This document shows, one piece after another, positions 5,863-24,653 of a stretch of DNA of 29,688 nucleotides. The notes below the pieces were generated by a model, which was not told where the DNA came from, ran no database searches, and worked only from the letters and a program-made list of their open reading frames with translations. Source of the DNA: an uncultured Rickettsiales bacterium (GTDB taxonomy: Bacteria > Pseudomonadota > Alphaproteobacteria > Holosporales > CAZGKG01). The stretch's first letter is position 1; each line of letters starts with the position of its first letter. Both the position numbers and the translations under genes were made by a program. The DNA lies in NCBI GenBank assembly GCA_964525615.1, contig CAZGKG010000003.1, positions 457-30,144 of the forward strand, read 5' to 3'.

Positions 5863-6297
5863 TTGACATTTTTTTTGATATCAGCAATAATTATAATACT
5901 TTTTTTGTTAGGTTTTTTTGACTTAAAATATCTTATTCTGCCAGATTTGCTCTTGGTGTTTTTTTTGCTTTTTAGCTTACTCTTGAAGGGGTTAGAAAGC
6001 ACTTTTATGTCTCTTCATGGTATTTTTACATTTTTCACTATAAGTTTGGGGCTCAAAGTCAGTTATCATTTGTGGCGGAAAATTGATGGTTTGGGGTGGG
6101 GCGATGTCAAATTGTTAACTCTTTCAGGTTGTTGGGTGCCATTTGAAGAGATTGGGTTTTTCCTGACAATAATTGGAGGATGTGGTTTTCTGCTTGGGAA
6201 ATACTGGAGGTTTTCTGGGCGAGGAGAGAGATTTCCTTTAGGAGCCTTAATTGTAGGTGTTTTAGGAGTGTGGATTTTGGTACAGGGAATAGAATAA
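5863..6297 (+). CDS. Prepilin peptidase, family A24 (short form lacking the N-terminal methylase/Zn domain)
   Basis: Multi-TM protein with both catalytic Asp motifs (FFDLKYLILPD and GLGWGDVKL) and a C-terminal FPLG; TTG start with an in-frame stop immediately upstream. Confidence 0.8.
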   Translation: MTFFLISAIIIILFLLGFFDLKYLILPDLLLVFFLLFSLLLKGLESTFMSLHGIFTFFTISLGLKVSYHLWRKIDGLGWGDVKLLTLSGCWVPFEEIGFFLTIIGGCGFLLGKYWRFSGRGERFPLGALIVGVLGVWILVQGIE

Positions 6298-7920: not shown

Positions 7921-8517
7921 TTGAGGAAAACAGAAACCTCTCCCTCTTCTGCTGAAACACCTTTGTGGGAGATGCTTCCGTCTTGTCCCTTTCCGGGGGC
8001 GCCTTCTTTTTCTGAACGTCTTGATGAGGCCTTGCGAGTCGACCTTGCAGGAGAAAGGGGAGCAGAAGCCATTTATGAAGGACAATTGCGAGCTTTAGGG
8101 AATCATCCTTTCGTGCCCCTTTTGGAGGAGATGGCGACTCAAGAACGTGTCCATATCAAAGCTTTCGAAGAAAGGGCGGCCCTTCATCATGTGCGCCCCT
8201 CCTTTTTAACCCCCTTTTGGGAAAAGGCTGGTTTTCTTTTAGGTTTAGGTACCGGGCTTTTAGGGGGGAAAGCAGCAATGGCTTGCACTGCCGCAGTGGA
8301 AGAGGTCATTGATGCTCATTACCAAGAACAGATTGAAACATTAGCTTTTGTTGATCCTGAATTAGGAGAGTTTCTTGAGAAATGTCGTTCGGATGAGGTG
8401 ATGCATCGGGAAACAAGTCTGGAGCATGGAGCAGATGAGGCTCCTTTTTCCCCCCTTTTACAAAAAGCAATTCGTACCGCAACGCGCCTTGCAATTAGTA
8501 TTGCGAAGAAAGTTTAA
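7921..8517 (+). CDS. coq7: Demethoxyubiquinone hydroxylase (Coq7 di-iron family)
   Basis: RVDLAGERGA..IYEGQ, QERVH, RPSFLTPFW..AGF.LG, AMACTAAVEEVIDAHY.EQ, DEVMH iron ligands; alternative start ATG 7972. Confidence 0.92.
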   Translation: MRKTETSPSSAETPLWEMLPSCPFPGAPSFSERLDEALRVDLAGERGAEAIYEGQLRALGNHPFVPLLEEMATQERVHIKAFEERAALHHVRPSFLTPFWEKAGFLLGLGTGLLGGKAAMACTAAVEEVIDAHYQEQIETLAFVDPELGEFLEKCRSDEVMHRETSLEHGADEAPFSPLLQKAIRTATRLAISIAKKV

Positions 8518-9512
8518 GAAACGAAAGCAGAAAAAGGATAACTGACCCAAAGGTTGGGAAAGGCTTTCCTTACCATGTGTTCATCTTTTTTCAAAAAAAG
8601 TAATTTTAGATTTGGACCTGCGTCTTGAGTCCAGTAGACGGAAAGACCTTGGGCACGCAACGCATAAATACGCTCAATTGTTGCAAGGGTTTCCTGGTTT
8701 GTATAAGAAATAGAGGGAATCGCAGATCCTATCACGTTATGAAGAGCTAAGGCGTTTTTTTCCGTTAAATCTCCCAGAGCCTTAAAATCTTCCTCTTGAA
8801 GAATTTTTAGAATACTCACCAGATCCTTTTCTGTATGATCGACCCATTGGGAATAGCCGGGAGAGGTTTTTTGGGTGATCTCCATCGCTTCTCGAGAGGA
8901 AATCTCTTTTGGGGACTCCTGTAAAACAATAATTCCTGCCACAAGATCTGGCATCAGAAAAGGTAAAGGAGTTCCATGACTATCAAAACCGTCTTCTTGG
9001 GTACCTCGATTCCAAAGAACAAATCCCTGCCATAGGGATCGGCAAGCACTTCCACTACCAAGACGCGCCAAACAGGAAAGGGTTTGTAGATCTGCGTTCC
9101 AATCACAAAGTAAATTAAGGGCTTTTACAAGCGCTGCAAACCCACTTGCAGAAGATGCCAAACCTGAAGCAATCGGAATATTACTTTCTGTTGAAACAGA
9201 TAAGGAATCTTGGAGGGAAAAAAGGGAAAGAAAACCTCTGAGTCGCTTTCCAAAAGGTGTTTCCCATGAAATTTCCCTTCCTTGAAGCTTTAGGGAAGGA
9301 GATCCTTTTAGAAGACTTAACTTTGTTTTAGTCCCCCATTCGGGGAAGGTTAAGGACAAACTTCCTGCAGTTGGAAGATTTAATTCTTGATCCCTTTTGC
9401 CCCAATACTTGACGAGGGCAATATTAACCGGAGCAAAGACTTCTACCTCTTGTTTTTGAACAGTCTTATTTTTTCCCTCTAGAATTTTTTGAACGATCTT
9501 AAAGCGTTTCAC
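8514..9512 (-). CDS. mvaD: Diphosphomevalonate decarboxylase
   Basis: NIALVKYWGKRD, GLASSASGFAAL, RLGSGSACRS (catalytic Arg), TQDAGPN (catalytic Asp); GTG start overlapping the upstream gene by 14 nt. Confidence 0.96.
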   Translation of the reverse strand: MKRFKIVQKILEGKNKTVQKQEVEVFAPVNIALVKYWGKRDQELNLPTAGSLSLTFPEWGTKTKLSLLKGSPSLKLQGREISWETPFGKRLRGFLSLFSLQDSLSVSTESNIPIASGLASSASGFAALVKALNLLCDWNADLQTLSCLARLGSGSACRSLWQGFVLWNRGTQEDGFDSHGTPLPFLMPDLVAGIIVLQESPKEISSREAMEITQKTSPGYSQWVDHTEKDLVSILKILQEEDFKALGDLTEKNALALHNVIGSAIPSISYTNQETLATIERIYALRAQGLSVYWTQDAGPNLKLLFLKKDEHMVRKAFPNLWVSYPFSAFVS

Positions 9513-10440
9513 GCATCAGGCCTTTTGCGGTGGTTTCAATAGAAAAAAGAGGGAACGTGTGGAAAAGCTTTTCCGTCTGATGATTCAGATGACCTAGACC
9601 GATCACACAATCACCAAGTCCCGATCCTGAAATTTTAGCGCCCCAAATGGTAGGTTGTGTCCTGAGTTTAAAAATGAGATCGGCTAAGGTGGGTGTGTTC
9701 ACGCCATAAGCATCCATTAATCCCTGGGCGATATCAAAAATTTTTCCTACCCGTTCTAGATTGTTTTCTAAAAGAGCAGGAAGGGCTAAATCCACCAATT
9801 CTTTTGAGGTTTGAAGAAAAGAAGACCAGATGTGAGGAAAGGCTTGAAAGCGTTGCCTTACAACTTCTACAACTTCAGGTGTTTTCCTTTTGATGCCTGA
9901 ATAAACAGCAACTAAGGGAAGGTCCGCTCTAATCTGTTGAGTAGATCCAGTTATAGGATTATGGAGCACAACTCCTCCCCAAAGGCTGGCAGCAGCATCA
10001 GCACCTGATCCCATGCCTTGAACTTTTTGGATCACTTCTTTTGCTTTCTCCCAAAGAAATTGCCGACTCACCGCATCAAAATCTTTTTCTGGGTTAAGAT
10101 AAGTCCATAAGGCCCCTAAGGTTGCAACTGTCACAGCTGCGGATGATCCAAACCCTATTTGTTCTGAAAAATCTGAAAAGATTTTTAACTGTAAAGAAGC
10201 GGGCATTTGAGTTTTATAAAGAGCAAAGGCTTCCTTGACAAAAGAAAAAGCTGGAGGTGTTTCGGATGATCTGAGATCAAAACTGCCATGAAAGTCCGAG
10301 TGAACCCAACAGCCCTCTCCCCCTAACTCAAGAGAAACAAGGATGCGCCCCTTATGGGCCACAAGAAGGGCTGGACATCCCGACAGGACCGCATGCTCTC
10401 CTAAAAGCATTAAGCTACCCGGTGCAGAAACTTTAATCAC
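9499..10440 (-). CDS. mvaK2: Phosphomevalonate kinase (GHMP family)
   Basis: SAPGSLMLLGEHAV, GFGSSAAVTVA, QGMGSGADAAAS and KISGSGLGDC, which are PMK-type signatures; GTGA overlap with the upstream kinase. Confidence 0.8.
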   Translation of the reverse strand: MIKVSAPGSLMLLGEHAVLSGCPALLVAHKGRILVSLELGGEGCWVHSDFHGSFDLRSSETPPAFSFVKEAFALYKTQMPASLQLKIFSDFSEQIGFGSSAAVTVATLGALWTYLNPEKDFDAVSRQFLWEKAKEVIQKVQGMGSGADAAASLWGGVVLHNPITGSTQQIRADLPLVAVYSGIKRKTPEVVEVVRQRFQAFPHIWSSFLQTSKELVDLALPALLENNLERVGKIFDIAQGLMDAYGVNTPTLADLIFKLRTQPTIWGAKISGSGLGDCVIGLGHLNHQTEKLFHTFPLFSIETTAKGLMRETL

Positions 10441-11303
10441 AATTCAAATCTCACAGGAAAAAGTTGAAGGGGGGGAGTCCGATCCCAAACACTTAAAATG
10501 AATCCTCCTAACCCCGATCCAGTAGGTTTCACAGCAAGAGCTCCGTTTTTGAGAAGCCTTTCCATTTCTTGACGCATCTCTTTTGTGATAAGACCCCAGG
10601 CGTCGAAGCATTCTTTGGCTAATGTGACTCCTTGGGCAAGAGCACTTAAACTATCAGAATTATTTAAGATGCCCTTTAAAATTGTTTGAGTGGCTTCCTT
10701 CATTTGATCGTCAATCGTTTCTGAAAGTTGGGGATTAGCTTTTCTCAATCGTGAGACCTCTTCAATAGCAGGCCTTGTTTTTCCCATCTCACCACAAAAG
10801 GACAAAAAAAAAGGAGAATCACTAATAAAAGATAAGGGAATTATTTTAAAGGGCTCTTTTCTATAAAGTTGAGGGCCGTTTGCTAAAACTCCTGCGATAT
10901 CTACGCCGCTTGTTGTACCATGAAAAAAGCCCTCAATCGGGAGAGCTGTTTCAAAAATTTTTTCTTCAGAAAAATGAGGGCGAAAAAGACGTACCAGCCC
11001 CACAGCTAAAGCTGCAGATCCTCCCAACCCGCATCCTAAAGGCATATTAAGGTGAATCAAAATTCCTGGAAGCGTTTCTTGAAAAAAATTCTCTAAGAAC
11101 CTTTGAAACGCATCCCCCCCCTCAAAAGGAGTCCAGGTTTTTGTTGACTCTCCAGTAATCCAGATCCCCTCCCCTTCAGAAATTTTTTCAATTTCTAATG
11201 AAAAAGATTTTAAAGGAAGCACAAGCGCCTCCCCCCCCCGTAAAACGGTGTGCTCTCCTGAAAGAATGCATTTGCCGTGGCTTCTAGCGATATTTCTAAT
11301 CAT
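10437..11303 (-). CDS. mvaK1: Mevalonate kinase (GHMP family)
   Basis: HGKCILSGEHTV, GCGLGGSAA, FHGTTSGVDIA (MK catalytic Asp context), KPTGSGLGG; lies between HMGR and PMK. Confidence 0.82.
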   Translation of the reverse strand: MIRNIARSHGKCILSGEHTVLRGGEALVLPLKSFSLEIEKISEGEGIWITGESTKTWTPFEGGDAFQRFLENFFQETLPGILIHLNMPLGCGLGGSAALAVGLVRLFRPHFSEEKIFETALPIEGFFHGTTSGVDIAGVLANGPQLYRKEPFKIIPLSFISDSPFFLSFCGEMGKTRPAIEEVSRLRKANPQLSETIDDQMKEATQTILKGILNNSDSLSALAQGVTLAKECFDAWGLITKEMRQEMERLLKNGALAVKPTGSGLGGFILSVWDRTPPLQLFPVRFEL

Positions 11304-12561
11304 CTGTGCGCTCTTTTTGAAGAAGCTTTAAAATTTCTGGACTACTGATATATCCCTTGCTTTTTAATCCTTGATGCAGTTCTTTTTTTAGATTTTTGCT
11401 TTCTAGAGGGGAAGCTCCTGCGGACAAAAGCAAATTATCAATATGAAGGGCCATGTGTCCTTGAACGATTCCTACCGTTACTAAAGCGCGCAGCGCACCT
11501 AAGTTTTGCAAAAGGCCGATACTTGCCATAACTTGAGCGAGTTCTTGGGCTTTTGAAATGCCCAAAATCTTAAAAGAAAGACGCGCACCTGGGTGAGAAT
11601 TTGTAATACCCCCCACACAGCCAACGGGAAAAGGTGCCTCTAAAAAACCATTTAATGTACCCTCTTTGAAAACCCATGTGGAAAGTCCTCGATAGGTACC
11701 ATCACGAGCAGCATAGCTATGAAGAGCTGCTTCTAAAGCCCGCCAATCATTTCCCGTTGCAACGGCTACACCGTCAATACCATTTAAAAGACCTTTGTTG
11801 TGGGTGGCGGCGCGGTAGGGATCTAGTTGAGCAAAAAGAGAAGCCTCCTCAAGAGCCTCTCCCATACAAGATGAAACTCCGGGCACAGAAACTTGGACTC
11901 GCACACGTCTTAAGTCAGACAAATTCGATAGAACTGCCATTCCTAAGGTTTCTTCCGTCTCAGCTGCGATCAGGTGTTTTAAAAATTCGCAAATTTGGTT
12001 GATGAGATTTGCACCCATTGCCTCTTGCACGTCGACATGAACATGAATCACCCCCATATGATCACCATCAGGCCGAGGAAGTTGACGAAATAGGATATCT
12101 CTAATACCCCCGCCTCGTGCCGCCATCATACAAGCCGGTCCTTTATGGGCCTGTTCTATCAGAAATTGTTTCTTGCTGGACAATAGGTCCTTTAAACGGG
12201 AGATATTTTTTATCTTGGGAATATGGATTTGCCCAATCATTTCCTGAGGCGGCAGAGATTCTGCCGTAACTTGCCCCCGTTGTTTTTCAATCCAACGAAC
12301 TGTTTTTTGAAGAGCTGCAATGACAGAAGTTTCCTCCGTTACAAGAGGCACTGTATAGGTTCGATGATTGACGACAACGTCAGACACGATTCCTAAAGGG
12401 AGGGCATAATATCCCACAGCATTTTCAATCAAAAGGTCAGACAATCCTTTGTCAGGAAGGCCTCCCCCTTTCAAGAAGGTTTCCTCTTCATCACAAAGGC
12501 CTGAAATTTCCCTTAAAAGAAGCAAACGTTCTGGCAAAGAAAGCCGACTAAAAGACCGCAC
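11296..12561 (-). CDS. mvaA: Class II hydroxymethylglutaryl-CoA reductase
   Basis: ENAVG (catalytic Glu), VTEETSVIAA, EAMGAN, ATHNKG (Lys), GNDWRA (Asp), GHMALH (His); GTG start 3 nt after the fabF stop. Confidence 0.96.
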   Translation of the reverse strand: MRSFSRLSLPERLLLLREISGLCDEEETFLKGGGLPDKGLSDLLIENAVGYYALPLGIVSDVVVNHRTYTVPLVTEETSVIAALQKTVRWIEKQRGQVTAESLPPQEMIGQIHIPKIKNISRLKDLLSSKKQFLIEQAHKGPACMMAARGGGIRDILFRQLPRPDGDHMGVIHVHVDVQEAMGANLINQICEFLKHLIAAETEETLGMAVLSNLSDLRRVRVQVSVPGVSSCMGEALEEASLFAQLDPYRAATHNKGLLNGIDGVAVATGNDWRALEAALHSYAARDGTYRGLSTWVFKEGTLNGFLEAPFPVGCVGGITNSHPGARLSFKILGISKAQELAQVMASIGLLQNLGALRALVTVGIVQGHMALHIDNLLLSAGASPLESKNLKKELHQGLKSKGYISSPEILKLLQKERTDD

Positions 12562-12564
12562 CCC

Positions 12565-13818
12565 TTACACTCGCTTGAAAATAAGCGAAGCATTTGTACC
12601 ACCAAAACCGAAAGAATTAGACAAGACAAAATCGATTTTTTTCTCCCGTGCTTTATGGGGTACAAGATCAATGACCGTCTCTTCTGGTTCATCCAAGTTC
12701 AGCGTTGGCGGTAAGCAATGATCTCGCAAAGCTAAAAGGGAAAAGATCGCTTCCACACCGCCGGCTCCCCCAAGAAGATGTCCAGTAGCTGATTTTGTAG
12801 AAGACATTGAAAGGTCCTTTGCCGCCTGACCAAAAAGTCTCTCCACAGCCCGTAATTCAATAGAGTCACCCATCGGGGTTGAGGTTCCATGGGCATTCAC
12901 ATACCCAATAGCCTCTGGAGAAATTTTCGCACGCTTTAGAGCATTGCGCATAGATCTAAAAGCGCCATCTCCATCTTCTGCAGGAGCTGTTATATGGTAG
13001 GCATCGCCTGACAAACCGTATCCTAAAAGCTCGCCATATATGGGAACCCCACGTTTTTTGGCGTGTTCATATTCTTCCAAAACTAAAATTCCTGCCCCCT
13101 CTCCCATCACAAATCCATCGCGATTTTTATCCCAAGGACGTGAAGAGGCCTCAGGAGAATCATTAAAAGAGGTAGAAAGCGCTCGAATCGCCGCAAAACC
13201 TGCAACACCAATACGACAAATAGCAGCTTCAGTCCCTCCTACGACCATGACATCAGCTTCTCCTGTTTGAATCAGGCGTGCCCCGTCTCCAATTGCATGA
13301 GATCCTGAAGCACAGGCAGTCACAACGGAAAGGCTTGGGCCCTTCAGCTGATGGCGAATAGAAATATGGCCCGTGGCTAGATTCACAAGACAAGCAGGAA
13401 TAAAAAAGGGGCTGACACGTCGGGGTCCACTGTCCTTGAGCACGACAGATGTCTGATAAATCTCAGGAAGTCCCCCAATACCTGAACCAACCAAAACGCC
13501 TGTTTTTTCTTTCTCTTCCTCTGTTTCAGGTGCCCATGCGGCATCTTTCAAAGCCTCATCTGCTGCTGCCATTGCATAAAGAATAAAACGGTCCGCCTTT
13601 CGTTGATCCTTAGGAGGCATCACATGATCGAGATTGAGCAAACCTTCTCCTTCTCCAAGAGGGATTTGTCCTCCGACACGGCATGCCAAATCTTGCGTTT
13701 CAAATCCTGACAAGTGCCGCAGTCCGGATTTTCCTTCAATTAATTGCTTCCATACAAAATTAACACCCGACCCCAGAGGGGATACAAGCCCCATTCCTGT
13801 TACCACAACGCGCCGCAT
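12565..13818 (-). CDS. fabF: 3-oxoacyl-ACP synthase II
   Basis: MRRVVVTGMG, TACASG (Cys), NAHGTST and TGHLLG (His/His), SNSFGFGGTNA; GAGGA SD. Confidence 0.98.
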   Translation of the reverse strand: MRRVVVTGMGLVSPLGSGVNFVWKQLIEGKSGLRHLSGFETQDLACRVGGQIPLGEGEGLLNLDHVMPPKDQRKADRFILYAMAAADEALKDAAWAPETEEEKEKTGVLVGSGIGGLPEIYQTSVVLKDSGPRRVSPFFIPACLVNLATGHISIRHQLKGPSLSVVTACASGSHAIGDGARLIQTGEADVMVVGGTEAAICRIGVAGFAAIRALSTSFNDSPEASSRPWDKNRDGFVMGEGAGILVLEEYEHAKKRGVPIYGELLGYGLSGDAYHITAPAEDGDGAFRSMRNALKRAKISPEAIGYVNAHGTSTPMGDSIELRAVERLFGQAAKDLSMSSTKSATGHLLGGAGGVEAIFSLLALRDHCLPPTLNLDEPEETVIDLVPHKAREKKIDFVLSNSFGFGGTNASLIFKRV

Positions 13819-16375: not shown

Positions 16376-16461
16376 CCTTTAATCTTGTGTTGCATTGTAA
16401 AGGTCAGTATACAATCCCTTACACCCTTGTGAAAAATCCTCCTAAGAGCTTTGAGGGAATT

Positions 16462-17096
16462 ATGGAACGTCTTAAGGGCCTCTTTGTCTCTTCAGTTGTC
16501 TATCCCCTTTGTTTTTTTTCTTTTGCCGTTGGCTTTTTTCCTTTTGTAGGAGGGAATGAGACAGACCTCTTAAGAAAATTGGCGCCTCCCCTTTTTTGGC
16601 TGATGGGATTTTTGACCCTTCTTTTTTCCTTTGGTGCCATTGAGGAGGGATTTCGAGACGGTCTTTTTGACCGTTGGTGGTTGCGCCCCCTATCACCATG
16701 GCAGAGCATTCTCCGTCTTTGGGGGCAACACCTTCTTTTTTTTGGAATTCCTTTTGGCGGTGCGTGTGTTTTTTTAAGTGACCTTTACGGTCTTTTGTGG
16801 AGGAAAAAATTATCCTTTTTCCTCGGTTTTGGTTTGGGTGTTCTTTTCTCAGTTTGTTAGGGATTTTTTTAGGAATTCTGAACTTTGGCACACGAGGCGG
16901 TATTTTTTTACAAGGGCTTTTAATGTTTCCTTTAGCAGCACCTCTTTTGCTGTTAGGAATTGGTGTGGGAGAAAATGGACAGGTGGAATTATTTCCCCTA
17001 TCTTATCTAGGAGGATTTTTAGCATTAGGATTGATTGAAGGCTTGTTTGCTTTTTTCTTAGGTTCTTGGGCATTAAAACAACGACTTTTGACATGA
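16462..17096 (+). pseudogene. ccmB: Heme exporter permease CcmB, frameshifted as assembled (one base missing around 16790-16840)
   Basis: Frame 1 (ATG 16462 to TAG 16860) encodes FFPF..G.E..LLRKLAP.LFW...LL..GF.DG.FD.W.L.P....HLLFFGIP. The overlapping frame to 17096 encodes SFLSLLG...G..RGG..LQGLLMFPLAAPLL. Together about 211 aa; ATGA overlap with ccmC. Confidence 0.8.
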
Positions 17097-21948: not shown

Positions 21949-22680
21949 TTGTTTGTGAAAGTCTTCAAAAGGGTTCTTTTTAAAATCTCAGGTGAGGCTC
22001 TTTCTTCTCAAGAAGGAGGAGCTCTGGATTTTTCTTTTGTTGATCGTTTAGTAGATCAGCTGTCTGAGGCTTCAAGTTTTTGTCAAATCGCTGTTGTTTT
22101 GGGAGCAGGCAATTTCTTTCGTGGGGAGGGGCTTCACTCTTTGGGTTTTGATCGGGGAGTTTCTGACCAGATCGGAATGCTCGGAACCCTTATGAATGGA
22201 ATGATTTTACGAGAGCGCCTTCTTCAAAAGGGCGTTGAAACGGCTCTTTTTTCAAGTCTGCAAGTGGAGGGGGTTGCATCCCTCTTTGAGGAATCGCGAA
22301 AAGCTGACCTTTTTGATAGATCAAGGGTTGTCATTTTCTCTGGCGGTGTTGGACAGCCTTATTTCACAACGGATACAGCGGCAGTATTGTGGGCTCTTCG
22401 GATAAATTGTGAAATTGTTTTCAAGGGAACACAGGTGGATGGCATTTACAATGCTGATCCTCGTTTGGATCCAACGGCGTCTCTTTTGAAGTCTTTGACC
22501 TATCAAGAGGCTCTTGAAAAAAAGCTGCGTGTCATGGATTTAACGGCCTTGACTTTAGCAGAAGAAAACACTTTGCCTCTTGTGGTTTTTAACATTAAAA
22601 GACCGGGAGGGATCCTCAAAGCTTTGAAGGGTGAACCTCCCTTTACTTGGGTTTTTTCAGAAAAAGAAGGCGTCTTATAG
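21949..22680 (+). CDS. pyrH: Uridylate kinase
   Basis: RVLFKISGEAL, VVLGAGNFFRG, GMLGTLMN, GQPYFTTDTAA, KGTQVDGIYNADP, LRVMDLTA. Confidence 0.97.
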   Translation: MFVKVFKRVLFKISGEALSSQEGGALDFSFVDRLVDQLSEASSFCQIAVVLGAGNFFRGEGLHSLGFDRGVSDQIGMLGTLMNGMILRERLLQKGVETALFSSLQVEGVASLFEESRKADLFDRSRVVIFSGGVGQPYFTTDTAAVLWALRINCEIVFKGTQVDGIYNADPRLDPTASLLKSLTYQEALEKKLRVMDLTALTLAEENTLPLVVFNIKRPGGILKALKGEPPFTWVFSEKEGVL

Positions 22681-23235
22681 ATGAACACCTTGAAGGATGA
22701 TTTAAAAAAACGGATGACAGCTTCTTGTGATATTTTTGCATAAGAGCTCAAAGGGCTTCGGACAGGCCGAGCATCGCCTCAATTATTAGAGCCAGTTATA
22801 GTGGAAGCTTATGGAAGCAAAATGCCTTTGACCCAAGTGGGTAATATTAACATTATGGAGCCCCGTCTTTTGGGAGTTCAAGTATGGGATAGTGGGCTTG
22901 TCAAAGCGGTAGACAAGGCAATTCGAGAGGCAGGTTTAGGCTTAAATCCCTCAGTAGATGGTTCTTTGGTGCGAGTGCCTTTACCAGAATTAACCCAAGA
23001 GCGGCGAAAAGATTTAGTAAAATTGGCATCAAAATATGCTGAAGGAGCTCGAGTATCTGTTCGTGGTGTTCGTCGTGATGGGATGGAAAGTGTCAAGAAG
23101 CATGAAAAAAATAAGGATATTTCGGAAGATGATGGGAAAAGGCTTGAGGAAGAAATCCAAAAAATGACCGATTCTTTTGTAAAAAAAATTGATGAAATGC
23201 TTCTCCACAAAGAAAAAGATATTTTGACGATATAA
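22681..23235 (+). CDS. frr: Ribosome recycling factor; full-length frame interrupted by in-frame TAA at codon 21 (22741-22743)
   Basis: ATG 22681 abuts the pyrH TAG and reads [45 protein letters not shown]...[12 protein letters not shown]...R.VRRD. The 184 codons match normal RRF length. The ORF track starts only at GTG 22801. Confidence 0.93.
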
Positions 23236-23249
23236 CTTTGGATTTTTTT

Positions 23250-24653
23250 ATGACGGTTGTAACGCGCTTTGCCCCCTCTCCTACGGGAGATCTGCATATT
23301 GGTGGAGCTCGGGTAGCTCTTTTTAACTGGCTTTTTAGTCGTCATGAGGGCGGCAAGTTTTTCTTACGAATTGAAGATACAGATCGCGTTCGTTCCACTC
23401 CTGAAGCGGAAGCCGCTATCATTGAAGGATTACGTTGGTTAGGATTAGATTGGGATGGTGACACAGTTTTCCAGTTTTCTAGAGCCCAAAGACACCGGGA
23501 TGTGGCCTATGAGCTTTTGGACAAAGGTCTGGCCTATCGTTGTTACACGACAACTGAAGAGCTTCAGGAAATGCGTGAAAAAGCCAAGTCGGAAAACAAA
23601 CCTTTTTTATACGATGGACGTTGGCGGGATTGTTCTCCTGAAGAAGCCCCATCCAATCAAAAATTTGCCCTTCGTTTAAAGGCCTCTCGTGTAGGCGAGA
23701 CGATTTTGACAGATTTAATTCAAGGCACCGTCAGTGTGAAAAATGCTCAGCTTGATGACATGGTGCTCTTGAGAGCGGATGGAACTCCTACATATATGTT
23801 ATCAGTGGTGGTAGATGATCATGATATGGGGGTGACTCATGTCATCAGGGGAGATGATCATTTAAGCAATACTTTTCGTCAAATGCAGATTTACCAAGCA
23901 ATGAATTGGGCGTTGCCTCAGTTTGCTCATGTGCCTCTCATTCATGGTTCTGATGGTGCGAAACTTTCCAAACGACATGGGGCAATGGGAGTTCAAACCT
24001 ATCAAGAAATGGGATTTTTGCCTGAGGCAATGAAAAATTATTTGCTACGTTTAGGATGGGGGCACGGAAATACGGAAATTATTTCAGAGGAGGAGGCGAT
24101 TCAATTGTTTTCTTTGGATCATGTGGGCCGATCACCTTCTTGTTTTGATTGGGCAAAACTCACGGCTTTAAACGCTCATTACCTTCGGGAAAGATCAGAT
24201 GCGTCTTTGTTTAAACTTTTAAAGGACCTGTTTTCTCAAGAGGGATTATCTCTAGATGAGGCGGCATCAGAGCGTGTGTTAAAGGGCTTGTCTACTTTGA
24301 AGCAAAGGGCTAAAACTCTTTTAGAACTCAAAGAAAACGCTGAGATTTATAGAACAGATGCAGTCAGTCACTGGTCTGAGGAAGCAAAAAGTCTTTTAGA
24401 AAAAAATGATTTCAAGTTTTTGCTTGAGAAATATCTTTTGCAACTAGAAAAACTTCAAATTTGGGCAGCGGATGATTTAGAAAAAACGGCACGTCTTTTG
24501 GTTCAGCAAGAAGGAACTAAGCTGGGCCATTTGGCTCAGCCGCTAAGGGCACTTCTCACGGGGAGTTTAGTTTCACCTCCTGTTTTCCATGTGATGGAAA
24601 TTTTAGGGCGTTCAATTGTGTTGGAACGTTTAAGAGTCAAAGCGTTTCAATAA
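23250..24653 (+). CDS. gltX: Glutamate--tRNA ligase
   Basis: TRFAPSPTGDLHIGG (HIGH), LRIEDTD, VVDDHDMGVTHVIRGDDH, GAKLSKRHGA (KMSKS). Confidence 0.98.
   Translation: MTVVTRFAPSPTGDLHIGGARVALFNWLFSRHEGGKFFLRIEDTDRVRSTPEAEAAIIEGLRWLGLDWDGDTVFQFSRAQRHRDVAYELLDKGLAYRCYTTTEELQEMREKAKSENKPFLYDGRWRDCSPEEAPSNQKFALRLKASRVGETILTDLIQGTVSVKNAQLDDMVLLRADGTPTYMLSVVVDDHDMGVTHVIRGDDHLSNTFRQMQIYQAMNWALPQFAHVPLIHGSDGAKLSKRHGAMGVQTYQEMGFLPEAMKNYLLRLGWGHGNTEIISEEEAIQLFSLDHVGRSPSCFDWAKLTALNAHYLRERSDASLFKLLKDLFSQEGLSLDEAASERVLKGLSTLKQRAKTLLELKENAEIYRTDAVSHWSEEAKSLLEKNDFKFLLEKYLLQLEKLQIWAADDLEKTARLLVQQEGTKLGHLAQPLRALLTGSLVSPPVFHVMEILGRSIVLERLRVKAFQ

Follow-up and report, generated by a model that had tools for sequence, protein, structure and literature searches.

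An in-frame TAA in the ribosome recycling factor gene of a draft Holosporales genome is very probably a low-depth G>T error

The ribosome recycling factor (RRF) gene, frr, of an uncultured Rickettsiales bacterium (GTDB order Holosporales) was found to carry a TAA at codon 21, which raises the question of whether the gene is recoded, lost, or simply misread in the draft assembly (GCA_964525615.1). Positions are those of the window, the whole 29,688-nucleotide stretch of contig CAZGKG010000003.1 that was analyzed, unless a contig is named, and the features are listed in Table 1. On the plus strand of the window the gene order is rpsB-tsf-pyrH-frr-gltX, and frr starts with no gap directly after the stop codon of an intact pyrH. 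The Pfam RRF profile (PF01765) spans the in-frame stop with 212.8 bits (E = 1.7e-63; profile positions 3-164 of 164, one TAA inside), a whole-domain match above the curated cut-off. The zero frame runs straight on past the TAA, without a change of frame, and the 20 codons that precede it are perfectly conserved relative to the conspecific gene. These findings confirmed the preliminary description of this DNA, which had reported an in-frame UAA at this codon, and translation of the frame also upheld the GTG that it had named as the next in-frame start. A second frr copy, which it had suggested looking for, was not found by a profile search of the 1.09-Mb, 95%-complete genome; the gene is single.

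Table 1. Coordinates of frr, its neighbors, and the other features discussed, in window positions or, where a contig is named, in contig positions
Feature	Position	Strand	Remarks
frr (ribosome recycling factor)	22681-23235	+	PF01765; ATG at 22681; 184 codons with codon 21 = Glu as in conspecifics; stop TAA 23233-23235
In-frame TAA, codon 21 of frr	22741-22743	+	T at 22741 private to the assembly; conspecific contigs G (GAA, Glu)
Next in-frame frr starts	22801-22824	+	GTG 22801 (codon 41), ATG 22822 (codon 48)
Synonymous T/C polymorphism in frr	23112	+	AAT/AAC, Asn144; common to several other strains
pyrH (UMP kinase), intact	21949-22680	+	PF00696; stop TAG 22678-22680 abuts the frr ATG
ccmB lesion	16804-16860 (gene from 16387, span 16387-17096)	+	Private: 7 clustered substitutions and a 1-base deletion at 16842
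Sequence after 10-N scaffold gap (C3:447-456)	1-227 (contig C3:447-683)		No counterpart there in conspecific contigs
Mevalonate pathway block	8514-13818	-	Complete-looking; intact in all conspecific contigs
argS	C30:11384		In-frame TAA; conspecifics Glu
glpC-like Fe-S oxidoreductase gene	C7:10833		In-frame TAA; conspecifics Glu
DegT-like aminotransferase gene	C37:2933		In-frame TAA; relatives Tyr or Phe
secF	C57:2321		In-frame TAA; conspecifics Glu
Cysteine desulfurase gene	C26:11875		In-frame TAA; Asp in relative G001

The same codon was examined in relatives and in contigs of the same species. The search for frr covered 30 relatives with a match, from the same family, order, and class and including genomes down to 0.8 Mb, and the gene was intact and uninterrupted in all 30. 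The uninterrupted frame for helix 1 and the G-L-R-T-G-R-A segment, which the TAA removes from this assembly, was present in all the fetched conspecific contigs as well as in all 30 relatives. None of them had an in-frame stop in frr, so the conservation by which a recoding site is recognized was absent. The read-through RRF with Glu at position 21 (P0001) matched a sequence of the protein collection exactly, with records from NCBI, JGI/IMG, Logan, and ENA, and was found on 14 contigs (JGI, ENA, NCBI, and Logan). Ten conspecific contigs, 97.3-99.94% identical to the window, were fetched; every one had G at 22741, giving GAA, and their other differences in frr were all synonymous. The T/C difference in codon 144 is, judging from these sequences, an example of ordinary strain variation in the gene. 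An RRF variant of 98% identity on 11 further contigs also had Glu21. The truncated product of 137 amino acids, which starts at the ATG of codon 48, was recorded for the window's own contig only, and the truncated products P0003, P0029, and P0030 were recorded only on the assembly's own contigs. The species therefore encodes an ordinary RRF of 184 residues with Glu21 (GAA). The preliminary description had assumed that the lost codon was AAA, a guess accounted for by the closest relatives, which have Lys at the aligned position. This part was wrong, since the conspecific contigs read GAA and the change is G>T.

The distribution of the T was then followed in public sequencing runs. The 2-kb region around frr was found in more than 20 lake and freshwater metagenome runs, and the Logan contigs of four runs (X1, X3, X4, and X5) were compared over positions 22300-23500. 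X1 (depth 16), X3, and X5, which are independent lake metagenomes, had G at 22741 and differed from the window by a synonymous T>C at 23112 as well. X4, a freshwater metagenome, had T at 22741 and was otherwise identical to the window, at a word depth of 2.8 and in pieces of 200-500 bases. With a 61-base probe in which the T at 22741 was covered by every 31-mer, a match was obtained in X4 alone. The assembly was probably made from X4. Since the T was also present in Logan's separate assembly of X4, it must occur in at least two read-derived words, and a miscall by the assembler does not by itself account for it. It is either an error at low depth, made at the level of the reads or the library, or a rare variant. 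The preliminary description had named read support for a sense codon at this position as the refuting result, and a sense codon was seen in the contigs of three independent runs.

The assembly is a draft of 115 scaffolds with an N50 of 13.6 kb and 74 gaps of ten Ns each. A family-level relative of 1.18 Mb (G001) was compared with the genome by tblastn, using its 1176 open reading frames, and 612 well-conserved orthologues were obtained. Among these, six were interrupted by an in-frame stop, which was TAA in all cases, 15 were broken by an N gap, and about four had a frameshift without Ns, including a private 2-base deletion at C7:2737 and a split TspO-like gene. Irregularities were also seen in the window itself. 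Of the clustered substitutions in ccmB, six are amino-acid-changing and the seventh is silent, and the frameshift ends the product after 157 amino acids instead of 236; an intact CcmB of 236 amino acids was found in three conspecific contigs. The first 227 bases of the window are purine-rich and lie inside an SLT/TPR gene, at a place where the conspecific contigs join the flanks with a single base between them. This piece probably arose in scaffolding or is peculiar to the strain. In another contig, an imperfect tandem duplication of about 100 bases, repeating ...HYHLTG.SL.VLG.MDIL..., interrupts the gene of the TspO-like membrane protein (C4:2780-3350), as if the haplotypes of two strains had been assembled one after the other. 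An extra T at position 5869 of the window, upstream of a prepilin peptidase gene, was seen in comparison with two strains; it is shared with another sample, L036, and is therefore a real polymorphism and not an error. The window also holds a mevalonate pathway block, with genes for a diphosphomevalonate decarboxylase-like protein, two GHMP kinases, HMG-CoA reductase, and a ketoacyl-synthase/thiolase-like protein. This pathway is unusual in an alphaproteobacterium with a reduced genome.

The five in-frame TAAs outside frr lie in conserved genes, some of them essential. For argS, secF, and the glpC-like gene, reading the TAA as Glu gave the exact protein of conspecific contigs, and the truncated fragments were recorded only for contigs of this genome. 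At all three sites the fetched conspecific DNA showed a private G>T on the coding strand. The TAA of the DegT-like gene aligned with a conserved aromatic residue in 19 of 23 relatives (Tyr in 13, Phe in 6). No exact entry in the protein collection was found for its read-through products with Glu or Tyr at the TAA and four choices of start, and no conspecific of this gene was found in the metagenome scan, which gave only relatives of 55% identity or less. The original codon is suggested to be aromatic, by conservation in the family only. All six stops of the genome, frr included, are TAA, and the four that were resolved are all GAA>TAA, compared with about 36-50% predicted by codon usage (p about 0.02). 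We regard this uniformity as a mild, unexplained bias. A common sequence context was not found at the six sites.

To set the stops against the background of substitutions, 82 kb of the genome was compared with contigs of the same species that came from at least two samples, and 76 private differences were counted. Nine of the 23 isolated private substitutions were G>T/C>A, and four of these nine create the stops. By comparison, G/T and A/C differences of either direction together made up 17% of the natural polymorphisms within the species. With the stops removed, G>T/C>A made up 5 of 19 private substitutions versus at most 17% of natural polymorphisms, an excess that is weak. Private G>T/C>A differences that do not create a stop numbered 5 to 10 in the 82 kb, which scales to about 65-130 genome-wide. 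With the codon usage of this genome, about 9% of G>T/C>A hits in coding sequence create a stop, so about 5-12 stops are expected, and the observed number is six. That frr, argS, and secF should be hit at the rate expected without selection is predicted by errors but not by real mutations in a living lineage; real nonsense mutations in these genes would be purged by selection.

Taken together, the TAA in frr is in all likelihood a G>T error from sequencing or library preparation that was fixed at low depth in a draft metagenome-assembled genome. This was also the first choice of the preliminary description, which had favored a sequence or consensus error, and the confinement of the T to one assembly and run X4, with GAA in conspecifics, supports it. 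In this explanation, a private single-base G>T would have turned GAA (Glu21) into TAA in a low-coverage scaffolded assembly. At a depth of about 3, one damaged or miscopied fragment that was read twice, through overlapping mates or PCR duplicates, could set the consensus. Nothing would then have been recoded or lost, and the gene model should be continued through the TAA with Glu21. Guanine oxidized during library preparation classically leaves G>T changes, and such G>T (C>A) artefacts from oxidized guanine (8-oxoG) reportedly arise in DNA shearing and library preparation. The frr change resembles them in being a single private G>T at about 3x depth in one run only, but the CCG>CAG context preference reported for 8-oxoG artefacts was not seen at these sites. 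Low-coverage consensus errors are a similar case, in that the assembly has comparable private G>T/C>A changes and other lesions elsewhere, and their numbers give no hint that purifying selection has acted.

Another possible explanation, which we consider unlikely, is that some of the cells or relic DNA in X4 truly carried the frr GAA>TAA, for example through unrepaired 8-oxoG, and that this allele set the consensus at about 3x. A cell without functional RRF would be dead or dying, and the stops would come from different cells that were stitched together by the assembler. The recurrence of the T in at least two words of Logan's independent X4 assembly is consistent with such an allele, and a G>T change could result from oxidative mutagenesis in the cell just as it could in vitro. 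In addition, a search of the 95%-complete genome for the N-terminal domain of MutM/Fpg (PF01149) gave no match. Against this, a MutY-like gene is present (C-terminal domain, C1:28682-29002), and the two results together speak neither for nor against a G>T mutator in vivo. Nonsense alleles of essential genes should also be so rare that about three reads per locus would hardly pick them up at six loci; the number of stops is roughly the unselected expectation, and the T was found in no other run. These points argue for an error over a real but rare deleterious allele.

The remaining explanations treat the stop as functional or the gene as lost. Programmed readthrough or suppression is very improbable. 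Here the X4 strain would decode UAA at some rate, for example with a Glu-inserting ochre suppressor, so that TAA in frr, argS, secF, and other genes would be tolerated, and the frr stop could serve as a sensor of termination or recycling capacity; readthrough or recoding, with a possible feedback sensor of recycling capacity, had been raised in the preliminary description. The frr stop does resemble the autoregulatory one of prfB (RF2), an early in-frame stop in the gene for a translation-termination factor. However, the prfB stop is a UGA that is conserved across species and comes with a +1 frameshift and a Shine-Dalgarno-like stimulator, whereas the frr stop is a UAA at which the zero frame continues and which no conspecific contig and no relative has. 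The six in-frame stops also resemble stop reassignment or suppressor readthrough, since several conserved genes carry TAA and the four resolved sites are at conspecific Glu codons, where about 36% GAA>TAA is predicted. In contrast to such systems, TAA is the main terminator of this genome: the preliminary description had called it a normal stop elsewhere in the window, and in the genome it ends 507 of the 920 open frames of at least 150 codons (55%), frr included. No tRNA with anticodon UUA was found by ARAGORN among 36 tRNAs and one tmRNA in the 95%-complete genome. The tmRNA was called as permuted, in two pieces. The TAA of the DegT-like gene lies at a conserved Tyr/Phe and not at a Glu, so a uniform TAA=Glu code does not fit. 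Moreover, strains of 99.9% identity have GAA and lack the stops, the six sites have no common context, and suppression would not rescue the private frameshifts of the assembly. Reassignment of TAA was rejected because of its use as terminator in 55% of long frames, the lack of a cognate tRNA, and the Tyr/Phe site, and a suppressor tRNA was rejected because there was none among the 36 tRNAs. A related form is given hardly any credence, in which the X4 strain has ochres at Glu codons of frr, argS, secF, and the glpC-like gene and owes its survival to partial suppression of UAA, for example by a Glu-inserting tRNA encoded in the unassembled 5%; if it were true, a natural population would have been caught with genome-wide leaky termination. 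Equally hard to credit is a true loss of RRF or of its N terminus, with a restart at the GTG of codon 41 or the ATG of codon 48 that leaves out helix 1 and GLRTGRA, or life without RRF altogether. In-frame starts do exist downstream of the stop and the genome is reduced (1.09 Mb). Still, the perfect conservation upstream of the stop speaks against this, the change is one private base, and the conspecifics and all 30 relatives, genomes of 0.8 Mb included, keep a full-length gene, so the earlier suggestion of RRF loss found no support.

If the stop is the low-depth error that we favor, the practical value of this finding lies in quality control. A genome that serves as species representative contains at least six nonsense codons that look false, with frr, argS, and secF among the genes affected, and to these are added several frameshifts, the 74 N gaps, and one or more scaffold joins that are doubtful. 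Before a pseudogene or gene loss is read from this genome, including any "missing essential gene" inferred for the Holosporales lineage, a comparison should be made with the many near-identical contigs from other lake metagenomes. RRF itself should be annotated as a normal protein of 184 residues with Glu21. For the organism, the frr stop would have no biological significance, and RRF in this species is ordinary and intact.
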